From: an uncultured Verrucomicrobiae bacterium
GTDB taxonomy: Bacteria > Verrucomicrobiota > Verrucomicrobiia > Opitutales > JABDGR01
Assembly: GCA_963765205.1 (NCBI GenBank)
Contig: CAVXVB010000007.1
Location: forward strand, 32,001 to 96,000
Length of the DNA stretch: 64,000 bases
Direction of reading: 5' to 3'
The notes beneath the pieces were generated by a model. It made no database searches. It saw nothing but the letters and a program-made list of their open reading frames with translations, and had not been told where the DNA came from. This document shows positions 38,970-55,924 of the stretch, piece after piece. Position 1 is the first letter of the stretch. Every line of letters begins with the position of its first letter. Position numbers and translations under genes: made by a program.

Positions 38970-39084
38970 CAGACACATTAGCGTGCGAGATTTCCGCCGT
39001 TTGGCAACGAAAGTTTCTCAAGGCTGGCGATGGCCCGCGACACGAAGTCCGTTCCTCTTTTGGCTATTTCATAATTCATAATTC

Positions 39085-42000
39085 TTAACTCTTAATTCTT
39101 AATTTTTCTTTCAAGAACGGCGCCGTCGGCGAGTTTTTCCGTCCTACCAATTCTGCCACCGGACCTTGATACAAAATCTTTCCGCCCGCGTCGCCGCCCT
39201 CCGGGCCCAGCTCGAGTACCCAGTCCGCCTCCGCGATCAAATCCAGGTGGTGCTCGATGACGATCACGGTGTGTCCCTGGCTCCACCAACCGGTGCAGCA
39301 AATCAATCAGCCGCGCCACGTCGGCCTGGTGCAGCCCGATGGTCGGCTCCTCCAATATATATAGGTGCTGCTCCGCCGCTCCGCCGCGCAACCGCGCCGC
39401 CTGGCCCGGCAGCCCGCGCGCCAGCTCGCTCACCAGTTTCAGCCGCTGCGCCTCGCCGCCCGAGAGCGTCGGGCTGCTCTGCCCCAGCGTCAAATAACCC
39501 AACCCCGTTTCGTTCATCAGCTCGAGTAGCGCGCGCAGCTTCCGGTGGGCGGCGAAAAAGCCCGCCGCCTCCTCGAACGACATCTTCAGCACCTCCGCCA
39601 GATTTTTCCCATTCCAGCGCAGCTCGCGCAACTCCGGCCCATAGCGGTCGCCTCCGCACTCCTCGCATGGCAGCCACGCCTCCGGCAAAAAACTCATCTC
39701 CAATTTCACGCGCCCCGCGCCCGCGCACGTCTCGCAGCGCCCACCCTTGGTGTTGAACGAAAACCACCCCGCCTCGTGCCCGCGCACCCGCGCCTCCGGC
39801 AATTGTGCGAACAACGCGCGAATGTGCTCGAACGCCCCGATATACGTCGCCGGCGTCGAGCGGGGCGTCTGCCCAATCGGGTCCTGCCCGACCTCAATCA
39901 CCCGCGCCAACGCCTGCGCCCCCGCCACCTCCCGCCACGGCGGCGGCGCAGTTTTCTGCCGCGCCATTTTCTGCCCCGGTGGAGAGCGCCCCGGTAGGGA
40001 CGCCTCTCCGAGGCGTCCGCTCTGCGCCGACAGTTTGCCCGCCATAGCCGTGTCGTAGGTGGGCCATTCCACCCGCGCCAACCCGCGCTCCGCCGCCCAG
40101 GCCGCCGCCGGCTCGAGCACCTCGCGCACCAACGTGCTCTTCCCCGCGCCCGACGGCCCGCACACCATAATCAACCGCCCGAGTGGAAACCACGCATTCC
40201 CACCCTTCAGATTTCTCAACCGCGCCTCCCACACCACCAGCCAATTTTTGGTTTTTGTATTTGTTTTCTCATTGGATGTTCGATGGTGAATGCTGGATGT
40301 TCGATGTTCGCCGGGGCCGCCCGGTGGCACGCTCCGCCAACTTCCCCGCCGCGGATGTCGCAAGCCCTCGCGCAAAAATTTCCCCGTCAGTGACTCGGGA
40401 TGTTTCATCACTTCCGCGACCGACCCCTGCGCCACCACGCGCCCGCCATGCGTGCCCGCCCCCGGCCCGAGGTCAATAATCCGGTCCGCCTGCCGCAGCA
40501 TGTCCTCATCGTGCTCGACCACGAGCAGCGAATTGCCGTGCTCTTGCAACGCGCGCAACGACTCGATCAGCCGTCGGTTGTCTCGCGCGTGCAAGCCGAT
40601 GGACGGTTCGTCGAGCACATACAGCACCCCGGCCAAATTCGACCCCAACTGCGCCGCCAGCCGGATGCGCTGCGCCTCGCCGACCGACAACGTGTCCGCC
40701 GACCGGTCCAGCGTCAAGTAATCCAGCCCAACCCGGTCCAAAAATTTCAACCGCTCGGCTATCTGCGGAATAATTTCGTCCGCGATTAGTTTGCCCCGCG
40801 CATCCGTCTGCAAATGTTTTAGCCGCTTCAGCAACACCGCCGGTGCGAGCGCCAGCAATTCCGGCAGAGACTGCGCCGGCCCCCGAGCGAAATATAGTTT
40901 CACCGCCCGCGCAATCGGGTTCAGCCGCGCGCCCTGGCACGCGGGACAAATCTCCTCAATCGGCTCCGCGTAACTCGGCGCTTCCGCATACAAATCCTCG
41001 TTCGCATCCACCTCCGCAAACAACCGCCCGTGCCCGCGGCAGCGCGGACACCACCCGCGCATCGAATTCCACGAAAAATTCTTCGGATCCAATTCGGCGA
41101 AGGCCTCGCCCGTCGCCGGGTCCGTCCGCGTCGTCGAGAACCACACCGGTTCGCCGCCCTTCGGCTCCAACAAGAAACACGCGCCCTCGCCGACCTTCAG
41201 CGCGCCGTCCAGCGCGCGTGCGATTTCCGCGCCGGAAAATTTCCGCGCCGCTTGGGTTCCAAAATCCGCCACGGCCACCTCCACGTCATGCTCGCGGTAA
41301 CGATCCAGCTTTTGAAATTTATCCACCGGCACCAACTGCCCGTCGCACCGCAGCAGCGCGTGCCCGTGCTTGCGCGCCCATTCGGCCAGCGGCTGGTGGT
41401 GCCCCTTGCGCCCGCGCACCAGCGGCGCGAACAAATATAAATGCGCCGCGCGCCGCCGGCGCGCCAGCTCCACCCGCAACCGTCGCGCCACCGCCTCGCG
41501 CCCCAGCGCCACCAGTGGCTTTCCCGTCACCAAACTGTGCGGCACGCCCAGCCGCGCAAACAGCAGCCGCAAATACGGCGCGACCTCCGTCACCGTCGCC
41601 ACCGTGCTTTTGCGCCCGCCGCGCGTCACGCGCTGCTCGATGGCCACCGTCGGCGGCAGCCCCGCCACTTCGTCCACGTCCGGCCGCGGCAGTTGCTCCA
41701 CAAACTGCCGTGCATACGACGACATGCTCTCCATAAACCGCCGCTGCCCTTCCGCGAAAATAATGTCGAACGCCAGCGTGGATTTCCCCGACCCCGACAC
41801 GCCGGTGATGACGGCGAATTCGCCCCGCGGCAACTCCAGCGATAAATTTTTCAGGTTATGTTCGCGGGCGCCAATGACGCGCAGCGTCGTTGCAGGTTGC
41901 CACTCGGTTGCAAGTTGCAGGTTGCAAGTTGCAGGTTGGCCGACCAGCGCCTTTTCATTTTCCTCAACTTGCAACTTTTCCCCGTCTTTAATTCGAAACC

Positions 42001-45000
42001 CCAAGCTCGAAACCTGAACCCCGTCTTCCTCAACTTGCAACCTGCAACTTGCAACCTGCAACCCGCCTTCTTCTGCCCCCTGCAACTGCTTCCGCAAAAA
42101 TCCCGCCGTCTCCGTCGTTCCCCGCGCCACTTCCTCCGGCGTGCCCTCCGCCACGATTTGCCCGCCCCGCGCGCCTGCCTCCGGCCCCAACTCGATCAAC
42201 CAGTCGCACGCCGCCAGTACGTCTTAACTGATGCTCGACCACCACCACGCTGTGCCCGCGATCCACCAGCCGCTGCAACACTTGCAGCAACCGCCCAACG
42301 TCGTCGCGGTGCAGCCCCGTCGTCGGTTCATCCAATAACAAGAGCGACGGCCCCGCGCCATCCTCGAGTCCGCCTAAATAGCGTACCAGTTTCAACCGCT
42401 GCGACTCGCCGCCCGACAGCGTGTTCAACGGCTGCCCCAGCGGCAAATAGCCCAGCCCGACCTCGACCAGCGCCCGCAGCCGCGCCGCGATTTTTTCCTC
42501 CTTCGTAAAAATTTCCGCCGCCTCGCCTACTTCGAGCGCCAGCACCTCCGCCACGCTGTGCCCCTGCCACGCGCAGGCCAGCACCTCCGGCTTGAAGCGC
42601 CGCCCGCCGCACTCCGGGCACGGCACATACAAATCGCTCATGAATTGCATCTCGACGCGTTCGCTACCCAATCCCTGGCAATGCGCGCACCGCCCCTCGC
42701 CCGCGTTGAACGAAAACTCCCGCGCTGTGAAGCCCGCCGCGCGCGCGCCTTCGCCGGACGCGAACAATTGCCGGACGCCCTCCCACGCGCCGCAATACGA
42801 CGCCGCGTTGCTGCGCGGCGTGCGGCTCACCGGCGATTGATCCACCAGCATCAATTCGGCAAATTTCGGCATCCACACCCGCGCCATCGCCGCCGGCTCC
42901 TGCGCCGGCTCGCCCCGCCGCGCGCGCAATCCCTCATACAACGCGTGCTCGAGGAACGTGCTCTTTCCCGACCCCGACACCCCGCAAAGGCCGACCAGAC
43001 GACCGAGGGGGATGGAGACATCGAGATTGTGCAAATTATGCAGGGTGATGCCTTGCAGGGTGAGAAATGCGGAATGCGGAGTTCGGAATTCGGAATTTTT
43101 CCGACCGGAATTCCTCCTGGCAAAAGATTCCGCACTCCGAACTCTGCGCTCCGCATTCCTTCGCTTCGCCAGCGTCTTCCGCCCGCTCAAATACTGCCCC
43201 GTCAAACTCTCCGGCGACTTCAGCAACTCCGCCACCGTTCCGCTGAAGACCAGCCGCCCGCCCAGCTTGCCCGGCGCCGGCCCAATCTCGACGATGTGGT
43301 CGGCGGCCCGCATCACCGCCTCGTCATGCTCGACCACGACCACGGTGTTCCCCTGGTCGGCCAGCCGCCGCAAAATCCCAATCAGCCGGTGAATGTCCCG
43401 CGGATGCAGTCCCACACTCGGCTCATCCAGCACAAACAACGTTTCCACCAGCGCCGAGCCCAGGCACGTTGTCAAATTCACCCGCTCCGTCTCGCCGCCC
43501 GAAAGCGTCCGCGTCGGCCGGTCCAGCGTCAAATAACCCAAGCCTACCTCGCGCAAATAGCGCAAGCGGGTGAAAATCCCCTCGAGCGCCAAGTCACTCT
43601 GATGCCGGTCTCGCCAGCGGTTCTTTTCCCATTTCAGATTTCAAATTTCTGATTGCAAATTCCTTTTCCAACAACCCCAACAATTCTTCCACCGGCATCC
43701 GATACAAATCCGGCAGCGTCCGTCCGCGCCACTTCCACCACAGCGCCTCCGGCTGCAGCCGCGCGCCGCCGCAATCCGGGCACGTCGAATACGTGCGGTA
43801 TTTCGATAGGAACACCCGCACATGCATCTTATACGTCTGGCCCTCGAGCCAGGCGAAAAACCGCCGCACGCCATACCAATGCTTCTGCCACGTCCCCTCG
43901 CGGTAGCCCGGCTCGCCCGCCAGCACAAACTCCCGCTGCGCCGCGCTCAACTCCCGCCACGCGATCTGCGTCGGAATTTTATGCTTCGCGCACGCCCGCA
44001 GCAAATCGCGCTGGCTCTCGCCGTAAACCTCGCCCTGAAACGGCCGCAGCGCCCCGCCCGCAAGGCTCAGTTTCGGATCAGGAATCACCAACCGCTCGTC
44101 CACTTCAATCACCCGCCCAAACCCCTTGCAACGCGGGCACGCCCCCAAGGGCGAGTTGAAGGAAAACAGCCCCGGCGTCGCCGGCCGGAATTTCCGCCCC
44201 GTGTGCGGCGAATGCAAACCCTCGGAAAACCGGCCCAGCTCGAGGCCCTCGTCGTCAAGCAAACGCAGCGCGCCCTGCCCGAAATGCAGCGCCGCCCGCG
44301 CCGCCTCGAGAAACCGCGTCTCGTTCGCCGCCGCCAGCGCCACCCGGTCCTGCACCACCAGCAACACCGCCCCCGTCGGCAACTCCGCAAAATTCTTTTC
44401 CAAGTCCTCCAGCCGCGCCACTGCCGGGCCATCGCTTGCGCCGGCCCCCCCTGGTTTATTCCGGTTTTTCCCTTTTCCCTTTTCCATTCTTTCTCCGACC
44501 ACCACCGCCCGCGTATACCCCTGCGCCCGCAGCGGCCCGAAAATCTCCGCCCATGACAACTGCGCGGGCTTCCGCACCGCGAACGCCACCAGTACCATCC
44601 GCCCCTCGTCCGGCCATTGCGCGCGCGCCTGGTGCCAAATCGTCCGCGGATTGTCGTCCGCGATCACTTCTCCCGTCTCCGGGTCGTGCAGCCGCGCCGC
44701 GTGCGGCCACCACGCTTTGAAATAATCGCACAGTTCCGTCATCGTCCCCACTGTCGAGCGCGAGGCCTTCACCGTGTTCGTCTGCTCGATGGCGATGGAT
44801 GGGCGGATGTTCTCGATGCTGTCCACCCGCGGCCGGTCCAGCCGCTCCAAAAACTGCCGAGTGTAGGCGCTGAACGTCTCGACATAGCGCCGCTGCCCCT
44901 CCGCGTGCAGCGTCTCAAACACCAGCGACGATTTCCCCGTCCCGCTCAAACCCGTCACCACGATCAACTTCCCCAGCGGCAAATCCAGGTGCAGCCCCCG

Positions 45001-45051
45001 CAAATTATTCTCGCGCACGCCGCGCAGGCGGATGGAATCGGAAGCAGGCAT
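39085..45051 (-). CDS. uvrA: Double-length (tandem-fused) UvrA, about 1980 codons; frameshifts near 43630, 42225 and 39280; carries repeat inserts
   Basis: Four Walker A motifs (GLSGTGKS, GVSGSGKS x2, GPSGAGKS), two 'AEGQRR' starts, signature motifs and Zn fingers across four ORF pieces. Confidence 0.93.
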
Positions 45052-45075
45052 GTCACAATTTCAGGAAAGAATTTT

Positions 45076-45150
45076 TACCACGGAGGCACAGAGAACACGG
45101 AGAAAATTATCAAGTCAATCCCCCTCTGTGTCCTCCGTGCCCTCCGTGGC
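45076..45150. repeat. Inverted 9-mer (CACGGAG) hairpin
   Basis: accacggaggcacagagaacacggag ... ctctgtgtcctccgtgccctccgtgg. Confidence 0.8.
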
Positions 45151-45166
45151 TTTATTTTCTTTCAAA

Positions 45167-47041
45167 CTAACTTCCGCCTTCCGCCCGGTGCGCCGCGATT
45201 TTCGTCAGGAACGTCGGGCCAAACTCGCGGAGCTTCTTCTCCCCCACCCCGCTAATGCGCGCGAATTCCGACTCGTCGCGCGGGAGCTGGCTGGCCATCT
45301 CGCGCAACGAAACGTCGGAAAAGATGATAAACGCCGGCACGTCGCGCTCGTCCGCCAGCCGGCGGCGCAGCCCGCGCAGTTTCTCGAACAACGGCTCGTC
45401 GCAGGCAATTTCCCCGGCCCGGGATTTTTCCCGGCGCGGCGCGGGCGCATTTTCCCCGCGTGGTTCGTAGGTCCGACCCTTCCGTGGCGCGGGCGCGGCC
45501 ACCGGCCGGGCGAAGGTGATTTTTTGGCGGGCGCGCAGCGCCGCCCAGCCCGCGTCCGTCAATTCAGCGATGTTAAACTGCTCCGCGTTCTGGCGCAGGT
45601 AGCCCAGCCGCACCAGCTCGCGCCCGATGGCGCCCCACTCCGCGCGGCTGTGCTCCGCGCCGATCCCGTAAGTCGAAAGCGCTTGATGATGCCACTTGCG
45701 GATTTTTTCCGTGTCGGCCCCGCCCAGCACGTCCGCCACATGCAGCAGCCCCACGCCGAAGTTGCCCTTCTCCCGGATGCGATAGACGCATGACATGAAT
45801 TTCTGCGCCGCGATGGTCCCGTCCCACGTTGCGCGCGGCGTCAGGCAATTATCGCAGGCACCGCAGTTGTCGCCCGGCAGCTTGTCGCCGAAATAATCCA
45901 GCAAATGCGCGCGCCGGCAGGACGGCACTTCGGCGTAGCGCACCATCAGCTCCAATTGCGCCCGCGCGATTTCCCGCTCTTTCGGATCGGGCTTTTCATC
46001 AATGAATTGGCCGTATTTAATCCGGTCGCCCGGGCTGAACAGCAGCAGGCATTCGCTCGGCAGCCCGTCCCGCCCCGCGCGCCCGGTCTCCTGATAATAA
46101 CCTTCGATATTCTTGGGCAAATCGTAGTGGACGACAAACCGCACGTTCGATTTGTTGATGCCCATGCCAAACGCGACCGTCGCGCAGACGACCTGGAGCC
46201 GGTCGCGCAAAAACGCCTCCTGGTTGCGCGTGCGCATTTTGCCATCCAGCCCCGCATGATACGCCGCCGCCCGCACCCCGTCGGCGGTTAGTTTTTCGGC
46301 GATGCTCTCCGTCGTCTTGCGCGCCTGGCAATAAATGATCCCGCTCTCCTTCGCGCGGCCTTGGACGAAATCCAACACCTGCTCGTAGGCCCCCTTTTTC
46401 GCCGCCACGCGGTAGTGCAGATTCGGCCGGTTGAAGCTCGCCACATAACACCCCGGCTCGCGCAAACGCAGTTGCCGCACTATGTCCTCCCGCACCCGCT
46501 CGGTCGCCGTCGCCGTCAACGCCATCACCTCGACCTGCGGAAATAAATCGCGCAACGTGGCTAGTTGCCGATACTCCGGTCGGAAATCATGCCCCCACTC
46601 GCTGATGCAATGCGCCTCGTCAATGGCGAACAAGTTCACGTCCCACCGGCGCAAGTCCTCTAAAAAGCCGGCCAGCATCAACCGCTCGGGCGCCGCATAG
46701 AGCAGCCGGTATTCCCCCTGGTGCAACCCGCGCAATCGCCTCCGCGATTCGTCGGCGCCCAGCGAGGAATTCAAAAATGTCGCCGGCACCCCCGCCGCCT
46801 GCAACGCGTCCACCTGGTCCTTCATCAACGCGATCAGCGGTGACACCACCACCGTCAACCCCGGCCGCGCCAGCGCCGGCAATTGAAAGCACAGCGACTT
46901 CCCGCCCCCCGTCGGCAAAACCACCAGCGTGTCCCGGTGCGCCAGTGTGGCGCGCATGATCTCCTCCTGCAGTGGCCGAAACGATTTAAACCCAAACCAG
47001 CGCTTGAGCAGCGCCTGCAGTTGAAACGGATCGGCGGGCAT
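45167..47041 (-). CDS. recQ: ATP-dependent DNA helicase RecQ
   Basis: 'PTGGGKSLCFQLP', 'DEAHCISEWGHDFRP', 'QETGRAGRDG', RQC and HRDC domains. Confidence 0.96.
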   Translation of the reverse strand: MPADPFQLQALLKRWFGFKSFRPLQEEIMRATLAHRDTLVVLPTGGGKSLCFQLPALARPGLTVVVSPLIALMKDQVDALQAAGVPATFLNSSLGADESRRRLRGLHQGEYRLLYAAPERLMLAGFLEDLRRWDVNLFAIDEAHCISEWGHDFRPEYRQLATLRDLFPQVEVMALTATATERVREDIVRQLRLREPGCYVASFNRPNLHYRVAAKKGAYEQVLDFVQGRAKESGIIYCQARKTTESIAEKLTADGVRAAAYHAGLDGKMRTRNQEAFLRDRLQVVCATVAFGMGINKSNVRFVVHYDLPKNIEGYYQETGRAGRDGLPSECLLLFSPGDRIKYGQFIDEKPDPKEREIARAQLELMVRYAEVPSCRRAHLLDYFGDKLPGDNCGACDNCLTPRATWDGTIAAQKFMSCVYRIREKGNFGVGLLHVADVLGGADTEKIRKWHHQALSTYGIGAEHSRAEWGAIGRELVRLGYLRQNAEQFNIAELTDAGWAALRARQKITFARPVAAPAPRKGRTYEPRGENAPAPRREKSRAGEIACDEPLFEKLRGLRRRLADERDVPAFIIFSDVSLREMASQLPRDESEFARISGVGEKKLREFGPTFLTKIAAHRAEGGS

Positions 47042-47212
47042 GGATGAAGGATGAGGGATGAGGGATGAAGAACTAAATGCAAATTGAACCACGGAGGGCG
47101 TGGAGAATCAAAGGGGAATTATAAATCAGAAATTCGAATTACGAATTACGAAAAAAAACGTCCAAAACCTCGAACAAATCACTCGCAAACTTGCAACCTG
47201 CAACTTGCAACC
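47042..47212. repeat. Compound repeat block (GGATGAG, CACGGAG, GAATTAC, TTGCAAC modules)
   Basis: Modules read directly; 47048-47107 has inverted partners at 48115-48174 and 48196-48244. Confidence 0.8.
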
Positions 47213-47222
47213 AAGCGCCCGT

Positions 47223-47558
47223 TCATTTCCGCTCCAATGCGCCAACCGTCGTAATCTTCAGCGACGTTTCACCCGTCGCATCCTCCGTCTTTTGGAAAAA
47301 CCCCCGCCGCCCGCACGCGCGCAGCAATGGATGCCCGGCCGCCATCAACGCGACCGCCGCGCACACGGTTGCAAACACCGTCGCCAACAGGCCGGAAATC
47401 CCCAGGAACAGCAACAATAGCATCAGCGTCGTAAACACCATCACCGCGCCCAGCACCGCCACGACCACCGCCACCACCAAGCCCTGCAGCAACGGATTCT
47501 TAACCTCGCGCCCGTTCGCAGTGACACGAAATTTCTTAATGTGGATACCCGCAGTCAT
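47223..47558 (-). CDS. Small membrane protein
   Basis: Long hydrophobic stretch. Confidence 0.55.
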   Translation of the reverse strand: MTAGIHIKKFRVTANGREVKNPLLQGLVVAVVVAVLGAVMVFTTLMLLLLFLGISGLLATVFATVCAAVALMAAGHPLLRACGRRGFFQKTEDATGETSLKITTVGALERK

Positions 47559-47632
47559 GCGCGAAATTCTCCGCCAACCGCCGTCCCGGCGCAAGAATTA
47601 TTTGCCGCCGTTCAGGGCGCACTCCCGGTTTA

Positions 47633-47703
47633 AAGGCGCAGCCAGACTGCGTCCCTGCATCCGGGCCAACGTGTTCTTGTAGGGGCGCAGACTTGCTGCG
47701 CCC
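47633..47703. repeat. Inverted pair of GTAG-type REP-like palindromes
   Basis: ggcgcagccagactgcgtccctgca ... tgtaggggcgcagacttgctgcgccc. Confidence 0.65.
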
Positions 47704-47737
47704 GCTTCCAGATTTTCAAGCCAAATTGTTCCCCTGC

Positions 47738-48001
47738 TCAATTCTGGCAGCAAAACGGACTCGCGCACACATGCCCGCCGCCCGCCGGCAGCGCGCACTC
47801 ACCTTGCCCGCAACCCGGAGCCGCTGGCGCGGCCGCGCCCTTGGTCATAATCCCGAAGCCGCCCAAAATCACGCGCTTGACGGGCAGGCCCGACTCCGGG
47901 TCGCGCGTCAACGGCGCATCCCGCATGGATTGGCGCACCTCAAAGCGCCGCACCTCGTCGCCCGGCTTTTCCGGAATCGTTTCGTAAACGTAAGTGGCCA
48001 T
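47738..48001 (-). CDS. FmdB-like small protein lacking the ribbon cysteines
   Basis: 'MATYVYE...FEVRQSMRDAPLT..PE.G.PVKRVI.GG'; Cys-rich tail. Confidence 0.75.
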   Translation of the reverse strand: MATYVYETIPEKPGDEVRRFEVRQSMRDAPLTRDPESGLPVKRVILGGFGIMTKGAAAPAAPGCGQGECALPAGGGHVCASPFCCQN

Positions 48002-48074
48002 AAGCAAGTTAGACCCGCATACTAGAACAAATGTTCGCCCCCTGTCAGGCCTGAAGAATGCAACTATAGGAAAA

Positions 48075-48312
48075 GAGGGACAGAGGGTCTAAGACACTGA
48101 GGAACTTCTCACTCCTCTCCGTGCCCTCCGTGCTTGAATCTGCATTTTTCTTTTCATCCTTTATCCCTCATCCTTTTCCTATCCCCCACCCCACCGTTCA
48201 ACCTGCATTTCTTTCTTCATCCTTCATCCCTCATCCGTCATCCTTCCCCCTCGCCCATCGAAACTAAAACGAAAAACCAGGAACCAGGAACCAAGAACTA
48301 GGAACCAGGAAC
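48075..48312. repeat. Compound repeat block upstream of mnmE
   Basis: gggacagaggg, ctccgtgcc, tcatccc xn, gaaccag x5. Confidence 0.8.
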
Positions 48313-48322
48313 TTACTCCCCC

Positions 48323-49897
48323 ATGCCCCTCGGAGAAACCATCGCTGCCGCCGCCACGCCCCCTGGCGAATCCGCGCTCGCCCTCGTGCGCGCCAGTGGC
48401 CCCCTTGTCCCCGTGCTCGCTGCCGCCGTCCTCGGCCGCTCCGCCGGCCAAACCCCCGCCCCCCGCCACGCCACCTTCGGCCACTACCATACCCTCGCCG
48501 GCGAATCTCTCGACCAAATCGTCCTCACCTACTACGCCGCCCCCGCCTCGGCCACCGGCGAAGACCTCCTCGAAATCGCCTGCCACGGCAACCCCCTCAT
48601 CGTCCGCCGTATCCTCGACGACCTCCTCGCCCGCGGCTGCCGCCCCGCCCAACCCGGCGAATTCACCCGCACCGCCTTTCTCGCCGGCAAACTCGACCTC
48701 GCCCAGGCCGAAGCCGTCGCCGACCTCATCCGCACCCGCTCCGACGGGGCCCTCCGCGCCGCCCGCCGCCAGCTCGACGGCGAACTCTCCCGCCGCGTCC
48801 AGGAATTCTCCGACACGCTTCTCCGAATCCAGGCCGCCACCGAGGCCTACATTGATTTCCCCGAGGAAGATTTGCCCGCCGAAGACAACGCCACCCTCCG
48901 CGCGAAAATCGCCGGCCTCGCCGCCGAGATTGAAAAACTTCTCGCCACCGCCCGCTACGGCGCCCTGCTGCGCGACGGCGCCAGCGTCGTCATCGCCGGT
49001 CCGCCCAACGCCGGCAAGTCCAGCCTTATGAACGCGCTGCTCGGGCGCCCGCGCGCCATCGTCAGCCCCACGCCTGGCACGACCCGCGATTTCCTTGAAG
49101 AAACCCTCACCGCCGGCCCCTATACTATTCAGATCACGGACACGGCCGGGTTGCCGGAGGAAGTCAGGAGTCAGGAAGACAGGAGTCAGGAATCAGGAGT
49201 CAGGAGTCAGAAGCTAGAAACTAGAAGTCAGAATTCGGACATCAGGGGTCAGAAATCAGAAATACCACCCCCCACCCCCCGGTCAACTGATTGGGAACTC
49301 GAAACTAGAAACCTGAAACGCGAAACTTTACCCAACACCCTCCCCGCCCCTTGCTCCCCGCTCCCTGCTTCTCCCGATCCTATTGAGATGGAAGGTGTTA
49401 GCAGGGCGTTTGAAAAAATCACGACTGCCGATTTTCTGCTCCTTGTCCTCGACAGCACCCTGCCCTCTCCTACACTGCCCCAGCCTCTAATCGAGGTCAT
49501 TCACCCCCAAAACACGCTTGTCATTGAGAACAAGACAGACCTGTCTGTCTCTTTTACGCATGATTCATTTCTTCCTGATATCAAGCATCTTAGACTCTCT
49601 CTCAAGACGGGTCAAGGGCTGGAACAACTTCGTGCCGCACTTGTAATCGCCCTTGAAACCTCGTATGCCCTACCCCACGACGATCTGATCCTCACCAACA
49701 CCCGGCACGCCGACGCTCTGCGGCAAACCCACGCCGCTCTGACGGCGGCCCTCGAAAAGCTGGAAACCCACGCGCCTGCCGAACTCCTCGCCGCCCACCT
49801 GCGCGATGCCCTTACCGCCCTCGCCGAAATCGCCGGCCCCCTCGACAATCACGCCATGCTCGACCGCCTCTTCGCCCAATTCTGCATCGGGAAATAA
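48323..49897 (+). CDS. mnmE: tRNA modification GTPase MnmE with an about 70 aa in-frame repeat insert
   Basis: 'TIAAAATP', 'TGED..EI.CHG', 'GPPNAGKSS', 'GTTRD', 'DTAG', 'NKTD', 'FCIGK'. Confidence 0.96.
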   Translation: MPLGETIAAAATPPGESALALVRASGPLVPVLAAAVLGRSAGQTPAPRHATFGHYHTLAGESLDQIVLTYYAAPASATGEDLLEIACHGNPLIVRRILDDLLARGCRPAQPGEFTRTAFLAGKLDLAQAEAVADLIRTRSDGALRAARRQLDGELSRRVQEFSDTLLRIQAATEAYIDFPEEDLPAEDNATLRAKIAGLAAEIEKLLATARYGALLRDGASVVIAGPPNAGKSSLMNALLGRPRAIVSPTPGTTRDFLEETLTAGPYTIQITDTAGLPEEVRSQEDRSQESGVRSQKLETRSQNSDIRGQKSEIPPPTPRSTDWELETRNLKRETLPNTLPAPCSPLPASPDPIEMEGVSRAFEKITTADFLLLVLDSTLPSPTLPQPLIEVIHPQNTLVIENKTDLSVSFTHDSFLPDIKHLRLSLKTGQGLEQLRAALVIALETSYALPHDDLILTNTRHADALRQTHAALTAALEKLETHAPAELLAAHLRDALTALAEIAGPLDNHAMLDRLFAQFCIGK

Positions 49898-49980
49898 AAC
49901 TACGGGCGCGCCGCTTGCCGACACGCCACGCCGTTTCATTATTCATTTATCATTTGCCAGCAGATTGATCGGTGGACAGG

Positions 49981-50904
49981 ATGCCCGACGTGTTACAGGA
50001 AATAAAAATTGGCTCAAAAACGACGGATGCTCCTAGTCCAGACTTGGGAGAAAGTGGCTCTGGCCTGCTGGAAGACGTGCCGGTCTCCAGCCGTCTTTTC
50101 CTTGGCGACAGCCGGAAATTGGTCCGTCTCAAAAACGAAAGCGTGCACTTGGTGATTACTTCGCCGCCCTACTGGACGCTTAAGGAATATAACGACCATC
50201 CCGACCAACTCGGGCACGTCGCAGACTACGAGCAATTTCTCGATGAGTTGGACAAGGTTTGGCGGGAATGTTTGCGCGTGCTGGTGCCCGGCGGCCGCAT
50301 CGTGTGCGTGGTCGGGGATGTTTGCCTTTCACGCAAAAAAAATGGCCGGCACTTGGTCATGCCCCTCCACGCGGACATCACCGTGCGGTGCCGCAAAATT
50401 GGCTTTGATAACCTTAATCCCATTATTTGGCTGAAAATATCCAACGCCAACTTCGAAGCCAACACGAGCAGCAAGTTTCTCGGCAAGCCCTACGAGCCGA
50501 ACGCCATCATCAAAAACGACATGGAATTTATTTTGATGCAGCGCAAGCCGGGTGGCTACCGCCAGCCCACCGAACACCAGCGCGACCTGAGCCGGCTGCC
50601 CAAGGAGGAATTCCGCGAATGGTGCCAGCAAACCTGGAGCCTGACCGGCGCCAGCACGCGCGAACATCCGGCGCCGTTTCCCCTCGAGCTCGCCCAGCGC
50701 CTCGTCCGCATGTTCAGTTTCGCGGGCGACACCGTGCTCGATCCCTTCGCCGGCACGGGCACTACCCTGCTGGCCGCCACGCAATGGGGCCGCAACTCCG
50801 TCGGCTTCGAGGTGGACGCGAAATACTTTGCGCTCGCGAAGCGCCGCCTCGAGGACGCCCAACCCGACCTTTATCGCAAAGTGACTTTCGAGGCGGTCAA
50901 ATAG
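49981..50904 (+). CDS. Beta-class N4-cytosine/N6-adenine DNA methyltransferase
   Basis: Motif IV 'TSPPY' precedes 'HPAPFP' and motif I 'DPFAGTGT'. Confidence 0.92.
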   Translation: MPDVLQEIKIGSKTTDAPSPDLGESGSGLLEDVPVSSRLFLGDSRKLVRLKNESVHLVITSPPYWTLKEYNDHPDQLGHVADYEQFLDELDKVWRECLRVLVPGGRIVCVVGDVCLSRKKNGRHLVMPLHADITVRCRKIGFDNLNPIIWLKISNANFEANTSSKFLGKPYEPNAIIKNDMEFILMQRKPGGYRQPTEHQRDLSRLPKEEFREWCQQTWSLTGASTREHPAPFPLELAQRLVRMFSFAGDTVLDPFAGTGTTLLAATQWGRNSVGFEVDAKYFALAKRRLEDAQPDLYRKVTFEAVK

Positions 50905-50926
50905 TGAGCGGAACGGGCAGCTTGCA

Positions 50927-51838
50927 CTATTTTGCTTTTAGGGCAGTGAGTGCAGCGTTCAAAATCGAGTCGGGATGCTCGCTGGCGAAAACAACGACGT
51001 AGATGTTTTCCGACTTCAACCGGCTGGAAACATTCGAGTGCTCGTCGGTGAACGGGTAATAAATGAACGCGATGAATTTCCCCCTTGGATGGGCCGCTTT
51101 GAATTTCGCGGCTTTGTTCACAATCTCATCGCAACGCTTGTGGATGTCGCGCCGCGCCTCGATGCGTTTGATATCCACGGCCAGCGCAATTGGTCCCGTA
51201 GCCTGGTAAGCGGCATCCAGTTCAAAATTCTCTCCGCCAATTTCGAAATGCCGTTTCTTGAATAATTTCGGCAGGCCGGTCTTTTTGGCCGCGTTGTCCA
51301 GGGCCGCGCGCACCATGATCTCCCAGCGGCCTTTGCCCTTGCGAATTTCCTTGTCCAAAAACATCAGTCGGTCAATGGCGCAAAAACTGTTCAATTCCGT
51401 GCGCTCGGGTAGAAACGGTTTAAGATAGCCGGCGAGGGCCTTTGCGGAATCGCGCCGAAATCGTGGACTGTAGGAATTCAATCCTTTCAAGCCCAAATCC
51501 CGCTCGATTGCGCGCTCGGCGACGTTGCACAGAATCATCAAAGGCTTAGCCAGCATCGGATGTTTTGCCAGCACGCGACCCAGCTCGGTCGCATTCATGT
51601 CCCGAAAATTAATGACCTGGCAACGCTCCTCCGTGATGTGCGCTTGAAAGGCCGCCAGGGCATTCTCGCGAATAAGCTGCATCCGAATCTCCGCCGCCGG
51701 CGATGCCCGCGAAAGATAATCCCGATGTGTTCCATAAGAACCCCGCCTCTCCTCCACGGCCGGAGCCTTAGGCTCATTTGCCACAAGAAATGGAAGTTCG
51801 TCATCCACGCTCAAACCGTAATTTAATGGAAACGCCAA
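50927..51838 (-). CDS. Putative type II restriction endonuclease (start uncertain)
   Basis: Convergent with the methyltransferase; 'ELDAAY...VDIK' PD-(D/E)xK-like motif. Confidence 0.65.
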   Translation of the reverse strand: MAFPLNYGLSVDDELPFLVANEPKAPAVEERRGSYGTHRDYLSRASPAAEIRMQLIRENALAAFQAHITEERCQVINFRDMNATELGRVLAKHPMLAKPLMILCNVAERAIERDLGLKGLNSYSPRFRRDSAKALAGYLKPFLPERTELNSFCAIDRLMFLDKEIRKGKGRWEIMVRAALDNAAKKTGLPKLFKKRHFEIGGENFELDAAYQATGPIALAVDIKRIEARRDIHKRCDEIVNKAAKFKAAHPRGKFIAFIYYPFTDEHSNVSSRLKSENIYVVVFASEHPDSILNAALTALKAK

Positions 51839-51916
51839 GGGAAGCCAGATTTCGCGGCCGCAGATTCAACCTGCTCCCGACCTGCACTTCTGCGGCTCAG
51901 CGCGAGAATGCATTAA

Positions 51917-52040
51917 TCATGGACTTTCCCCCTGGTTAAATCCGATGCGCCGGCGCGGGGTTTCGGGCGGGGACGCGAGCAGGGGTTGCAGCTTGGTCCA
52001 GATGGTCCGCAGGGCGTTCTCATGACCATCTTGTCCTTTC
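51917..52040 (-). pseudogene. Remnant C-terminus resembling ORF6N-domain proteins
   Basis: 'HENALRTIWTKLQPLLASPPETPRRRIGF'; no credible upstream body. Confidence 0.45.
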
Positions 52041-52179
52041 CTTTCGCGCTTGGAATTGTTAGGATCAAAAACTCCGCCGTAAAATCTTTCCACGCTCACT
52101 ATTTGTTCGCCCGCGCTTTGAGTCTGACGAATATTCCAGAGCGCGGGCTAAAGCACCGCGCTACGGAAGTTTCGGCAAA

Positions 52180-52320
52180 TTGATGCATGGATTTCAAATC
52201 ACAACCTGGCACTTCAACACCTTCCCTTTGTGATCTTCATTTCTTCGTGGTGAATCACCTCCCCCCACCCTTTTCTTCACTGTCAACAACTTGTGAATAA
52301 GAACAGACCGGTCTGTCTGT
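52180..52320. other. Candidate oriC region
   Basis: C-rich to G-rich skew switch independent of gene strand; DnaA box tgtgaataa (TTATTCACA) at 52292-52300; mnmE/mnmG context; parS sites nearby. Confidence 0.65.
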
Positions 52321-55003
52321 ATGAATTCTCATCCTAAAGAGATTCGCCTAGGCAAGGCCAAGCCGTATGACGTGATTGTCTGCGGGGCGGGTCATGCTGG
52401 GTGTGAGGCGGCGCTGGCGGCGGCACGGATGAGGGCCGATGTGCTGATGCTTTCGGGTAATGTAGACACGATTGCCCAGATGAGTTGCAACCCGGCGATT
52501 GGCGGCCAGGCGAAGGGGCATATGGTACGGGAGATTGATGCGCTGGGGGGCGAGATGGCGATCAACACGGATGTCACGGCGATTCAGTTTCGGTTGTTGA
52601 ACGCGTCGAAGGGGCCGGCGGTCCATGGGCCGCGGGCGCAGTGCGACAAGAAGGCTTACCAGTTTCGCATGAAGCATGTGCTGGAGTTGCAGGCGAACTT
52701 GACGCTGTTCCAAGCGGTGGTTACGGGGTTGATTTTTGAGGGCGGCGCGGTGGTGGGCGTGCGGACGAGCATGGATATCGAGTTTTATGGGCGGGCGGTG
52801 GTGGTGACGACGGGGACGTTTTTGCGGGGGTTGATGCACATCGGCCGCAACAAGAACGAGGGGGGCAGGCTGGGGGACTTTTCGTCCAAGAGCCTGTCTG
52901 CTAGTTTTCTGGAAGCGGGGATCGAGTTGGAGAGGCTGAAGACGGGGACGCCGCCGCGGATTTTGGGGTCGAGCATAGACTTTACGAAATGCCGCGAGCA
53001 GCCTGGGGATGTGGTGCCGACGCTGTTTGCTTTTTACGATACGCGATATGGGGTGGAGGGGGGAATGTTCCACGTGGAACATAAGGAGGGCAGAATGGAA
53101 GATGGAAAATGGAAAATGGAAGAAGAAGACCAGAACGCGACAATGGCGCGACGGGCAGAGGGCGAAGGGCGGGGAGCGGGGAGCGGGGAGCGGGGGAGGG
53201 AGGGAGCAGAGGAGCAAAGGAGCAGAGGAGCAGAGGCCCCACTTCGCCAAGGCTTCGAGGGGCAAGGCGAGGGGAAAGAGCAATACGGAACGTTCAACGC
53301 TCAACGTTTAACGTTTAACGCTCAAATGGAAGAGGGGACGGCTGTGGAAGGGGCGGAGGGCGAAGGGAGGAATGTGGAAGGTGGAATGGAAGATGGAAAA
53401 TGGACAATGGAAGAAAGTTGCCCTAGAGCAGAAGGGAATGAGAGCAAAGAGGGTGGGGCGAAGGACAACCGGGCAGCCTACTCCCGACTCCTGACTTCTG
53501 ATTCCCTGGCACCAATTCCAAAATCTACCCCTCACCCTTCATTCTCCACATTATCCGCCGCCCTTCGCGTAATGTTCCACGTGGAACATCGGGCGGGGCA
53601 GACTTTGCTGGGCTGGAGGCCGGGGGAGAGCCAGGTGTCGTGCTGGATGACGGATACGAGCGTGGAGACGGCGCAGATTGTGCGGGAGAACCTGCATTTG
53701 TCGGCGATGTATGCGGGGGAGATTGCGGGGGTGGGGCCGCGGTATTGTCCGTCCATCGAGGACAAGTTTGTGAGATTTAGTGATAAAACATCCCATCGCC
53801 TTTTCCTGGAGCCGGAGGGGCGGCACACGGACGAGTGGTATATCAACGGGTTGTCCACCTCGCTGCCGTTCGAGGTGCAGTTGCGGGTGCTGCACAGCAT
53901 CCCGGGGCTGGAGCGGGCGGCGATGATGCGGCCGGCTTACGCGGTGGAATACGACTTTGCGCCGCCGACGCAGTTGCAGCCGTCGCTGGAGTCGAAGAAG
54001 GTGGCGCGGCTGTTTTTCGCGGGGCAGATCAACGGCACGTCGGGCTACGAGGAGGCGGCGGCGCAGGGGTTGGTGGCGGGGATCAACGCGGTGCTGCGGG
54101 TGCGGGGCGAGGCGCCGTTCATTCTCGGGCGGCACGAGGCCTATATCGGCGTGCTGGTGGACGATTTGGTGACGAAGGGCACGTCGGAGCCATATCGGAT
54201 GTTCACGAGCCGGGCAGAGCATCGGCTGCTGTTCAACCACGGGAGCGCGGAGCTGCGGTTGGTCGAGCACGCGGCGCGACATGGGCTGGTGCCGGCGGAG
54301 CGGTTGGCGCGGATGCGGGAGAAGGCGCGGTTGGTGGAGCAGTGGACGGCGGCGCTGGAGACGGAGCGGGTGAAGGGCGGGAGTGTGGGCGATTGGCTGC
54401 GCAAGCAGGGAGCGGGGAGCGGGGAGCAAGAGGGAGGAAGAATGGAAGATGGAAAATGGAAGATGGAAAAAACGGGCGAAGAGCGAGGGGCGAAAAGAGA
54501 GGGAACGAACGCTCAACGTTCAACGTTTAACGCTTAACACTCAAGTGGAAGAGGGGAAGGGTGCGGAAGGGGCAAAGGGCGAAGGGCGCAAAGGAGAAGA
54601 TGTTAACCACGGAGGGCACGGAGAACACGGAGGAGGAAATGAAAGGGCAGAGACCCCACTTCGCCAAGGCTGCGAGGGGCAAGGGGGGATTTTGCCGGCG
54701 GAGTTTTTGGCGTTGGCTGCGGCGGTGCGCGAGGAGGTGGTGTATCGCGTGCGGTATCGGGGGTATCGGGAGCGGGAGATGCGGCAGATCGAGAAGATGC
54801 GTCACTTGGAAAATGTGCGGTTGCCGGCGGATTTGGATTATGGCGCGGTGCCGGGATTGCGCGCGGAGAGCCGGCAGAAGCTGGCGTTGGTGCGGCCGGC
54901 GACGCTGGCGCAGGCGCAGCGGATCAGCGGGGTGGGGCCGGCGGATGTGTCGTTGTTGCTCGTTGCCCTGAGGGGCAAAGGGACAGAGGGACAAAGGCAC
55001 TGA
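52321..55003 (+). CDS. mnmG: MnmG (GidA) with two repeat inserts; frame change within the second insert (about 54403-54535)
   Basis: '[10 protein letters not shown]', 'MSCNPAIGG', 'RLKTGTPPR', '[11 protein letters not shown]', '[14 protein letters not shown]', '[11 protein letters not shown]'; C-terminal '[17 protein letters not shown]' lies in ORF 54383-55003. Confidence 0.95.
53066..53081. promoter_or_regulatory. parS site 1
   Basis: Perfect palindrome TGTTCCACGTGGAACA (encodes MFHVEH). Confidence 0.88.
53573..53588. promoter_or_regulatory. parS site 2
   Basis: Identical palindrome 507 bp downstream, same reading frame. Confidence 0.88.
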
Positions 55004-55164
55004 GGGGGAGCGGAGAGATGATTCACCGCAAAGGCGCGAAGAGCGCGGAGGGTCTACGGTCAAAGGCCCGCCTTGCCAGGGTCTTTCTATTTGACCCCCA
55101 ACCAAAATCGCCGTCAAATCAAGGCGGCTTCCAAGTTAAAAAAATCGCGCCAACCTAATCTGCC

Positions 55165-55924
55165 ATGGATGAACCAATGCCAAAGTTGAAAAACGCGCCA
55201 ATTATTGAAGCGGTGCTCGACATTGATTGTGACATGCCGCCGGGGCAAGAAATTTCGACCTTGGAAGCATCCGCGCGGGCGTCATTCCAACCGCAATATC
55301 CGAAATTCCAAACTATTTTCAATCAAGAACTCCGTCTGGAGCCGAAACTGGGAGCACCAGCACAAGTGTCCACCCTGCACAAAATGCAAGGCCTTCAATT
55401 CCTGCAAGACGATGGGCGGCAACTCGTGCAGGTGCGAACGCAAGGCTTTTCCTTCAATCGCCTTGCCCCCTATTCCACGCTGGATGATTATTTGCAGGAA
55501 ATGGAACGAACCTGGAATCTGTTCGTCAAGCTTGCCTCACCCGTTCAAGTCCGGGTGATTTCGGCTACGATATATCAACCGCATCTTGTTGCCCAAGCCG
55601 GGTGTAAAAGTTCAGCTCGATGACTATCTCAAGATTGGCCCGCACTTGCCCGATGAAGAGAAATTTGAGCTTATCGGCTTTCTCCATCAACATGCCGCCG
55701 TCGAAGTGGAGACCAAGAATCAAGTGAACATAATTCTGGCGGCTCAACCTCCAGAAAACGATATGCTTCCGTTGATTTTTGATATAACTGCGGCAAGCGC
55801 GACAACGCAGGAACCCGGCAATTGGGCTGCAATCGCCGAAAAAATCCAGTCATTAAGACACTTGAAAAACCGGGTTTTTAGAAATACAATTACTGAAAAA
55901 TGTATCAGCCTATTTCAACAATAA
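55165..55924 (+). CDS. TIGR04255-family protein (extra T near 55560)
   Basis: 'LKNAPIIEAVLDI', 'FSFNRLAPY', 'RLRYINRI' restored by removing one base, 'LRHLKNRVF...ITE'. Family recognised from memory. Confidence 0.75.

Follow-up and report, generated by a model that had tools for sequence, protein, structure and literature searches.

Repeat modules in frame within uvrA, mnmE and mnmG of an uncultured Verrucomicrobiae bacterium, and candidate cassette genes bounded by the same units

Host genes and insert sites

The 64,000-nucleotide stretch analysed here (the window, C7:32001-96000) belongs to a 4.02 Mb assembly of 12 contigs, 92% complete, of an uncultured Verrucomicrobiae bacterium (G000) whose gene content reads as Opitutales, and carries short tandem-repeat modules inside three conserved genes for DNA repair and tRNA modification, namely a double-length uvrA, mnmE and mnmG. 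The basic module is an arm of roughly 30 bases and four units, with fixed length and sharp ends. The sequencing runs containing the window are soil metagenomes, and no RNA set is among those listed, which says nothing about expression either way; two of the runs, X1 and X2, belong to one study, and X1 may be the source sample. The genomes compared are the relatives G001-G009, of which G004 is a congener, and G027 of the same order. The features, in window positions, are as follows.

39068..39104, minus strand: heptamer arm over the uvrA stop codon, purine-rich on the sense strand
39092..45051, minus strand: uvrA, tandem (double-length), 1985 aa, with extra single bases in the assembly at 39281, 42224 and 43611
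39934..40060, minus strand: UvrA loop a, 42 aa vs 18 in G004, containing a GTAG-type repetitive extragenic palindrome (REP) at 39993-40019
40249..40309, minus strand: UvrA loop b, solo heptamer arm of the GATGTTC family, 20 aa vs 0 in G004
41890..42065, minus strand: UvrA inter-repeat linker c, gene-less hairpin of two GTTGCAA arms and a nested TTTCGAG arm
43066..43178, minus strand: UvrA loop d, gene-less hairpin with AATGCGG/GAATTCG arms
43614..43660, minus strand: UvrA loop e, solo ATTTCAG arm, 14 aa vs 8 in G004
44433..44499, minus strand: UvrA loop f, degenerate AATGGAA arm, 22 aa vs 7 in G004
45081..45148, no strand: gene-less hairpin of 9-mers (CACGGAG), intergenic between recQ and uvrA
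48323..49897, plus strand: mnmE, 524 aa, with G1-G4 motifs and C-terminal CIGK intact
49157..49363, plus strand: 69-codon mosaic (GAGTCAG, CTAGAAR, AACTCGA and CTCCCCG arms) in MnmE switch II
52321..55003, plus strand: mnmG, 893 aa, with an extra assembly base at 54493
53066..53081, no strand: parS palindrome, copy 1, perfect and in frame (read as MFHVEH)
53084..53571, plus strand: mnmG insert 1, about 163 codons with a 26-bp hairpin, between the two parS
53573..53588, no strand: parS palindrome, copy 2, perfect and in frame
54401..54690, plus strand: mnmG insert 2, about 96 codons, including a CACGGAG 9-mer arm
54970..55006, plus strand: 8-mer arm (GAGGGACA) over the mnmG stop codon

The initial annotation had proposed nine insert sites in these genes, and all nine were found at or near the positions it gave. 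Alignment to relatives, which it had named as a check, gave longer loops in G000 at every site, the relatives carrying shorter loops at all of them rather than equally long non-repetitive ones. The assembled sequence has three frame breaks in uvrA and one in mnmG. The short-read contigs of X1 are one base shorter at 39281, 42224, 43611, 54493 and 55559, and those of X2 likewise at 43611; with the first four positions corrected, UvrA and MnmG are open over 1985 and 893 aa. The four frame breaks are one-base assembly errors, and the claim that most inserts keep the frame extends, after correction, to all of them. Frameshift-restoring splicing was dropped as a candidate, as the short-read contigs show one-base errors instead.

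Contig support was assessed among the short-read contig pieces listed, which are identical to the assembly over 40090-41399, 51890-53210 and 53193-53878. These pieces bridge uvrA 40272-40308 and mnmG insert 1 without differences, as well as both edges of the mnmE insert; the remaining insert sites have read depth, with no bridging piece among those listed. As to phase variation by slippage in perfect repeat tracts, the arrays are degenerate and about four units long, the two one-base rows at 49176/49179 stem from stacked repeat contigs, and contigs drop rare variants. Assembly artefacts or pseudogene decay could be suspected from the one-base errors, with five in 17.5 kb here and, across the 1.43 Mb of aligned orthologs, 88 or more small frame junctions. 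As an account of the inserts this is extremely improbable, since short-read contigs match several of them base for base (the annotation had asked whether raw data lack them), the same loops are filled in other assemblies and the enzyme cores appear not to be relaxed. A practical lesson is that what look like pseudogenes in this long-read assembly are the product of one-base errors; the apparent split of the neighbouring TIGR04255 gene (55165-55924) is one as well, at 55559.

From loop f to loop a, the six UvrA blocks measure 22, 14, 36, 57, 20 and 42 aa, against 7, 8, 22, 19, 0 and 18 aa in G004. The RNA of linker c folds at -86.3 kcal/mol (z -6.9 vs shuffles), and the linker has a 154-bp paralog of 73% identity, spacers included, in an intergenic position directly after a stop codon at C8:256681, so composite modules exist as units. 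Loop d also folds better than shuffles (z -5.5) and has paralogs of 71-73% on C4. The element at 39993-40019, which had been counted among the heptamer modules, is instead a GTAG-type REP with 37 matches genome-wide, none of which (0/37) adjoins any of the five hits to Y1 or REP-associated tyrosine transposases (RAYT) in this 92%-complete genome. The same UvrA loops are filled by different modules in G003 and G002, and in G003 a seventh loop is filled too; the loops are short in G001, G004, G006 and G008. In the UvrA tree, G000, G002 and G003 group together, with the insert columns partly retained in the alignment. The family has both the double-length UvrA and a standard UvrA (G000:C2:163621-165996).

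The oddest of the sites is the switch II insert of MnmE, which adds 69 aa relative to relatives between DTAG-L and the catalytic glutamate E355. Its flanks match, by motif, G273-L274 and the catalytic E282 of switch II in Escherichia coli, with residue roles taken from the available text of PMC3695501. The conserved arginine is a proline in G000. Where the insert sits, G002 carries about 11 residues; among the 116 other MnmE matches from 120 genomes of the phylum, none is split at this place. The GAGTCAG and GCTAGAA units of this insert match gene cassettes, described below, in G001, G003 and G005. An AlphaFold2 model of MnmE (7-row alignment, mean predicted local distance difference test 56.5) gave the insert, residues 276-350, as low-confidence coil, as it did the N-terminal domain, and was left unused as evidence. 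The MnmE case amounts to a direct experiment on the insertion load that a GTPase switch can bear.

In mnmG, insert 1 stacks AATGGAA (twice), GGGAGCG, the 8-mer GGAGCAGA, AACGCTC, AGGGCG-type and CTCCTGA arms, and has a 120-bp block in common with insert 2 (79%). The palindromes at 53066-53081 and 53573-53588 match the parS consensus perfectly. The loop at site 1 is 193 aa long; family members have 42-127 aa there, and the parsed outgroups 21-39. Within this loop, parS is present in all nine family members and in 14 of the 15 outgroup loci parsed (6/21 were not parsed), so the parS-coded loop is older than the arms. No published description of parS inside mnmG was found, subscription journals and supplements being outside the search. 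Two or three exact parS copies lie within mnmG in several genomes of the order sampled, and in the 0.9-Mb genome G027 an MnmG match (C4:12701-14209) has an 865-aa open frame with one internal TAA. The MnmG tree did not resolve. As the locus shows, a single conserved enzyme can gain as many as 260 residues from dispersed repeats.

Reading frame and enzyme cores

Coding inserts were surveyed by alignment to 1314 G004 orthologs (1.43 Mb aligned), taking insertions of at least 21 nt; orthologs were used for this census, and our own gene calls missed part of mnmG. The 174 insertions include 24 with repeat units, and 22 of the 24 are in frame. One of the two out-of-frame rows is the mnmG assembly error and the other, C8:439701, was dropped as a coding insert, the array being intergenic, with a stop codon on one side and a start codon on the other. 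Insertions without repeats are in frame with about the same frequency (145/150), and 1070 of 1650 frames through heptamer arrays are free of stops (65% of random frames), so frame retention is read here as survivorship. Ordinary purifying selection thus takes the place of the selection for read-through that had been suggested.

In the three long mosaics, stops close each of the five other frames, and the coding frame alone is free of them. At columns that are otherwise invariant, private changes number 8 of 213 in MnmE (7-21 in relatives) and 33 in UvrA (14-90), and MnmG, with 10, is slightly above its relatives (1-8). By this measure the enzyme cores are not relaxed which, together with the stop-free coding frame, favours translation through the inserts; these are likely tolerated passengers read as extra protein loops. 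The proposal of a modular repeat system creating new peptide loops holds in that loops were added; as to novelty it does not, most sites being pre-existing variable loops in which relatives carry other modules.

Removal of the inserts from mRNA or protein, in the manner of introns or inteins, would leave normal mature enzymes. A 69-aa insert in switch II is hard to square with activity, and hairpin inserts juxtapose their own ends, both of which would suit removal; however, stops are missing from the coding frame only, which is needless if RNA is excised, edges and lengths differ among relatives, and no conserved splice or intein motifs were seen in the alignments. This explanation is considered highly improbable.

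Repeat arms, gene cassettes and the origin region

With rows merged by hand, the coding inserts of G000 come to 20 sites in 16 genes. Thirteen lie outside the three genes, their hosts being an exosortase, a Kdo transferase, CheA, a chromate transporter, an E2 subunit, NUDIX, PPK2, a squalene cyclase, an rRNA dimethylase and four unnamed genes. The initial annotation had all coding insertions of the window within about 13 kb of the origin; genome-wide, 13 of 20 sites lie elsewhere, though the locus is a strong hot spot: uvrA, mnmE and mnmG hold 7 of the 20 sites in about 0.6% of the aligned DNA, an enrichment measured in one genome, and the mnmE-mnmG bin is the densest of 189 20-kb bins, with 12 arrays vs a mean of 1.8. 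An origin near 50-52 kb is plausible from a skew flip and the two parS sites. The strand-corrected third-position skew goes from -0.42 in mnmE to +0.70 in mnmG, the sharpest flip, and immediately to its right are the three genes whose G skew is the strongest in the genome. No DnaA-box cluster was found at the window, and dnaA and parB are on C9, so the placement draws on skew and parS, which make a replication origin beside the three genes likely.

At the mnmE/mnmG flip the third-position GC skew reaches an extreme, and it dies away over some 30-40 kb (window 25000-90000). It is strong in G000, G002, G003, G007 and G009 and weak in G001, G004, G006 and G008, and mnmG is on the G-rich side in G000 alone. 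In strongly skewed family genes, arms are oriented with the skew in 36 of 48 cases and against it in 11, with one tie, nearly all of them from two genomes. Between mnmE and mnmG, 49972-51838 encodes a DNA methyltransferase and a convergent open reading frame without family hit; the mnmE/mnmG spacer is 100-350 bp in G001, G004 and G008, and the segment is likely a restriction-modification insert at the skew flip.

Genome-wide, G000 has 292 period-7, 40 period-8 and 96 period-9 arrays, vs 1, 4 and 4 in a triplet-shuffled genome, and about 73 period-7 arrays per Mb vs about 3 in G004 (7 in 2.36 Mb, of about 2.9 Mb). Inverted pairs number 50 among 344 family arrays, 29 of them with spacers of up to 143 bp. 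Further intergenic arms and REP-like palindromes of several families lie near recQ, mnmE and the mnmG leader (47042-47212, 48093-48312 and 52141-52250). The earlier statement that no cognate enzyme is identified in the window needs amending, as candidates exist outside it: seven TIGR02436 four-helix-bundle genes and one GxxExxY gene (TIGR04256) of G000 are bracketed by the same units, as likely selfish cassettes. Inverted four-unit arms stand on both sides of six of the seven four-helix-bundle genes and of the GxxExxY gene, the seventh being one-sided. Among the cassette-end units are AATGGAA, TTTCGAG, AATGCTG, GGATGAA, TTTATGA, the 8-mer GAGGGACA and the 9-mer CACGGAG, and the majority of these reappear in the coding inserts. 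The cassettes are placed between a stop and a start codon, and all eight are flanked by apparent protein genes, not located in 23S rRNA; from the flanking translations, we take some junctions to be gyrB-gyrA, atpG-atpD and argF-argG. Among 31 four-helix-bundle proteins (24 from relatives, 7 from G000), clades, judged by eye, track unit families and mostly junctions too; at one junction, related proteins carry different units on both arms, and one clade is found at two junctions. G004 has arm remnants without a gene at two of five directly adjacent orthologous junctions, three of the eight cassette sites not being comparable. One arm recurs as an exact 27-base match in 33 stretches, which come from Verrucomicrobia, Bacteroidota, Ignavibacteria, Acidobacteriota, Patescibacteria, a cyanobacterium and Nitratifractor.

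On C9 (1166543-1170235), a RAYT-like HUH transposase domain lies in frame within a 1230-aa frame, bounded by an inverted repeat of about 37 bp. By its motifs the frame is presumably alanyl-tRNA synthetase, and the element reads as a whole cassette putatively translated within an essential enzyme. The four-helix-bundle proteins are homologous to Avd of diversity-generating retroelements; a link to these or other retroelements was dropped, the reverse transcriptase PF00078 not being found in the 92%-complete genome.

Heptamer arrays mostly adjoin stop and start codons. Among co-directional genes, by our own gene calls, purine-rich arms make up 42 of the 55 that lie no more than 15 bp from a stop, and pyrimidine-rich arms 53 of the 62 equally close to a start. 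This strong polarity could mean that selection keeps the arms as signals in RNA or DNA (stems processed by RNase III, or sites for translation or binding), with the coding copies tuning mRNA stability of repair and tRNA-modification genes. The two uvrA hairpins that fold far better than shuffles would fit, as would the presence of an RNase III gene (rnc), the heptamer-bearing stem of a Coxiella intervening sequence (IVS) being cut by RNase III according to the available text of PMC4990558. However, G004 manages with about 3 arrays per Mb, the modules at one site vary among relatives, and the mnmE mosaic folds no better than shuffles (z 0.5); a signalling function is improbable as the main explanation.

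Here it is proposed, with a probability of roughly 55%, that the inserts are stacked cassette-type arms, copied gene-less with help from cassette proteins, that selection keeps the in-frame copies in loops and that gene conversion builds the mosaics. Cassettes at stop-to-start junctions would lose their gene and leave hairpins and solo arms. These arms and composite hairpins would then reach new sites by copying of DNA, preferentially where arms are already present and, likely, where DNA close to the origin is single-stranded; cassette-encoded proteins would likely help in trans, the nuclease-fold GxxExxY protein being the best candidate. Only in-frame, stop-free copies in loops would survive purifying selection, and a loop bearing an arm would gain more by re-insertion and local gene conversion, for which the 120-bp block common to the mnmG inserts is the basis.

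Several observations weigh against this explanation. For GTTGCAA, AACGCTC and GATGTTC, no cognate was found among the 31 four-helix-bundle and 13 GxxExxY genes viewed, and a four-helix-bundle gene lies within 300 bp of only one of the 33 cross-phylum exact arms. No arm was seen to move, neither target-site duplication nor conserved flanks were seen by eye at the arms, and typing of left and right arms was not significant (p = 0.15). Most cassettes occupy the same junction across the family and so look vertically inherited. G001 has nine four-helix-bundle genes with few inserts and short UvrA loops, so the number of cassette genes does not predict insert load. The lack of inserts in the second uvrA of the four genomes examined (the G003 copy is partial) speaks for the hot spot, but this gene is an imperfect control, being a different paralog with shorter loops. 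The genome-wide link of orientation to skew is weak (rho 0.16, p 0.048), and G007 has strong skew yet few inserts.

The main rival is spread by the host only, in which ordinary recombination, template switching and gene conversion between scattered copies would spread the arms of cassette ends, with the cassette proteins uninvolved. The missing target-site duplication, the block common to the mnmG inserts, the uncoupling of insert load from gene number, the units without a cognate gene and the missing reverse transcriptase all agree with it. It does not easily account for arms that are always four units long and sharply bounded, for the match between protein clades and units, or for the exact 27-mer in distant phyla, and it is regarded as a serious, if minority, possibility. 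Copying of arms with help from cassette proteins has a bolder form, in which the four-helix-bundle and GxxExxY cassettes would be a spreading system apart from RAYT/REP, with clade-specific arm recognition, gene-less copying into single-stranded DNA, replication-strand polarity, a preference for parS and the origin, and MnmE activity kept. This form is doubtful as a whole; if true, a repeat-spreading system would grow new protein segments even inside the catalytic switch of MnmE. Long heptamer repeats are common in many bacterial phyla yet unexplained, and the cassette link supplies named proteins and sequences.

Comparison with known repeat systems

Comparable heptamer repeats are known in cyanobacteria as short tandemly repeated repetitive sequences, and the Rickettsia palindromic elements, to which the present inserts had been likened, are in-frame repeat inserts. 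Eight of the nine sites described here differ from those palindromes and from GTAG REPs in being tandem-unit arms without a GTAG tag. No published link of four-helix-bundle or GxxExxY genes to dispersed or coding arms was found, with subscription journals and supplements outside the search.

In the available text of the papers concerned, several systems come close. The multicopy elements of Geobacter metallireducens have four tandem heptamers, within and between genes (Aklujkar 2009, PMC2700814), and, as in G000, arrays of 7-, 8- and 9-mers are paired there across the two strands, the consensus sequences TCTCCGTS[Y] and MTYCTGA being similar to the present 9-mer and GAGTCAG units; however, they are read there as regulator binding sites, and that text reports neither a four-helix-bundle/GxxExxY link nor multi-family mosaics of 69-163 codons. 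The Xanthomonas and Nostoc heptamers likewise have a G-rich strand after stops, a C-rich one before starts, inverted pairs and some intragenic copies (Rehm 2015, PMC4692102), but with one unit per genome and no origin preference, whereas many units and an origin-proximal hot spot are found here. The 23S rRNA IVS carry a four-helix-bundle gene (S23p type) in a stem with tandem GACAGAT heptamers on the 5' side (Warrier 2016, PMC4990558); the cassettes of G000 lie between protein genes instead, and the coding inserts are gene-less arms apparently read through. GTAG REPs form in-frame inserts in repair and RNA-modification genes (Di Nocera 2013, PMC3733652), as at the one GTAG REP site here, and in that text intragenic GTAG repeats are most numerous in Opitutus terrae, where both uvrA genes contain them; the candidate partner genes in G000 are not HUH transposases. 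As far as these texts go, heptamer blocks inside genes, the polarity of such blocks and the presence of REPs in Opitutus uvrA have already been published, and what is added here is the correction of assembly errors, the size of the mosaics, the hot spot at parS and the putative origin, and the insertion in switch II of MnmE.

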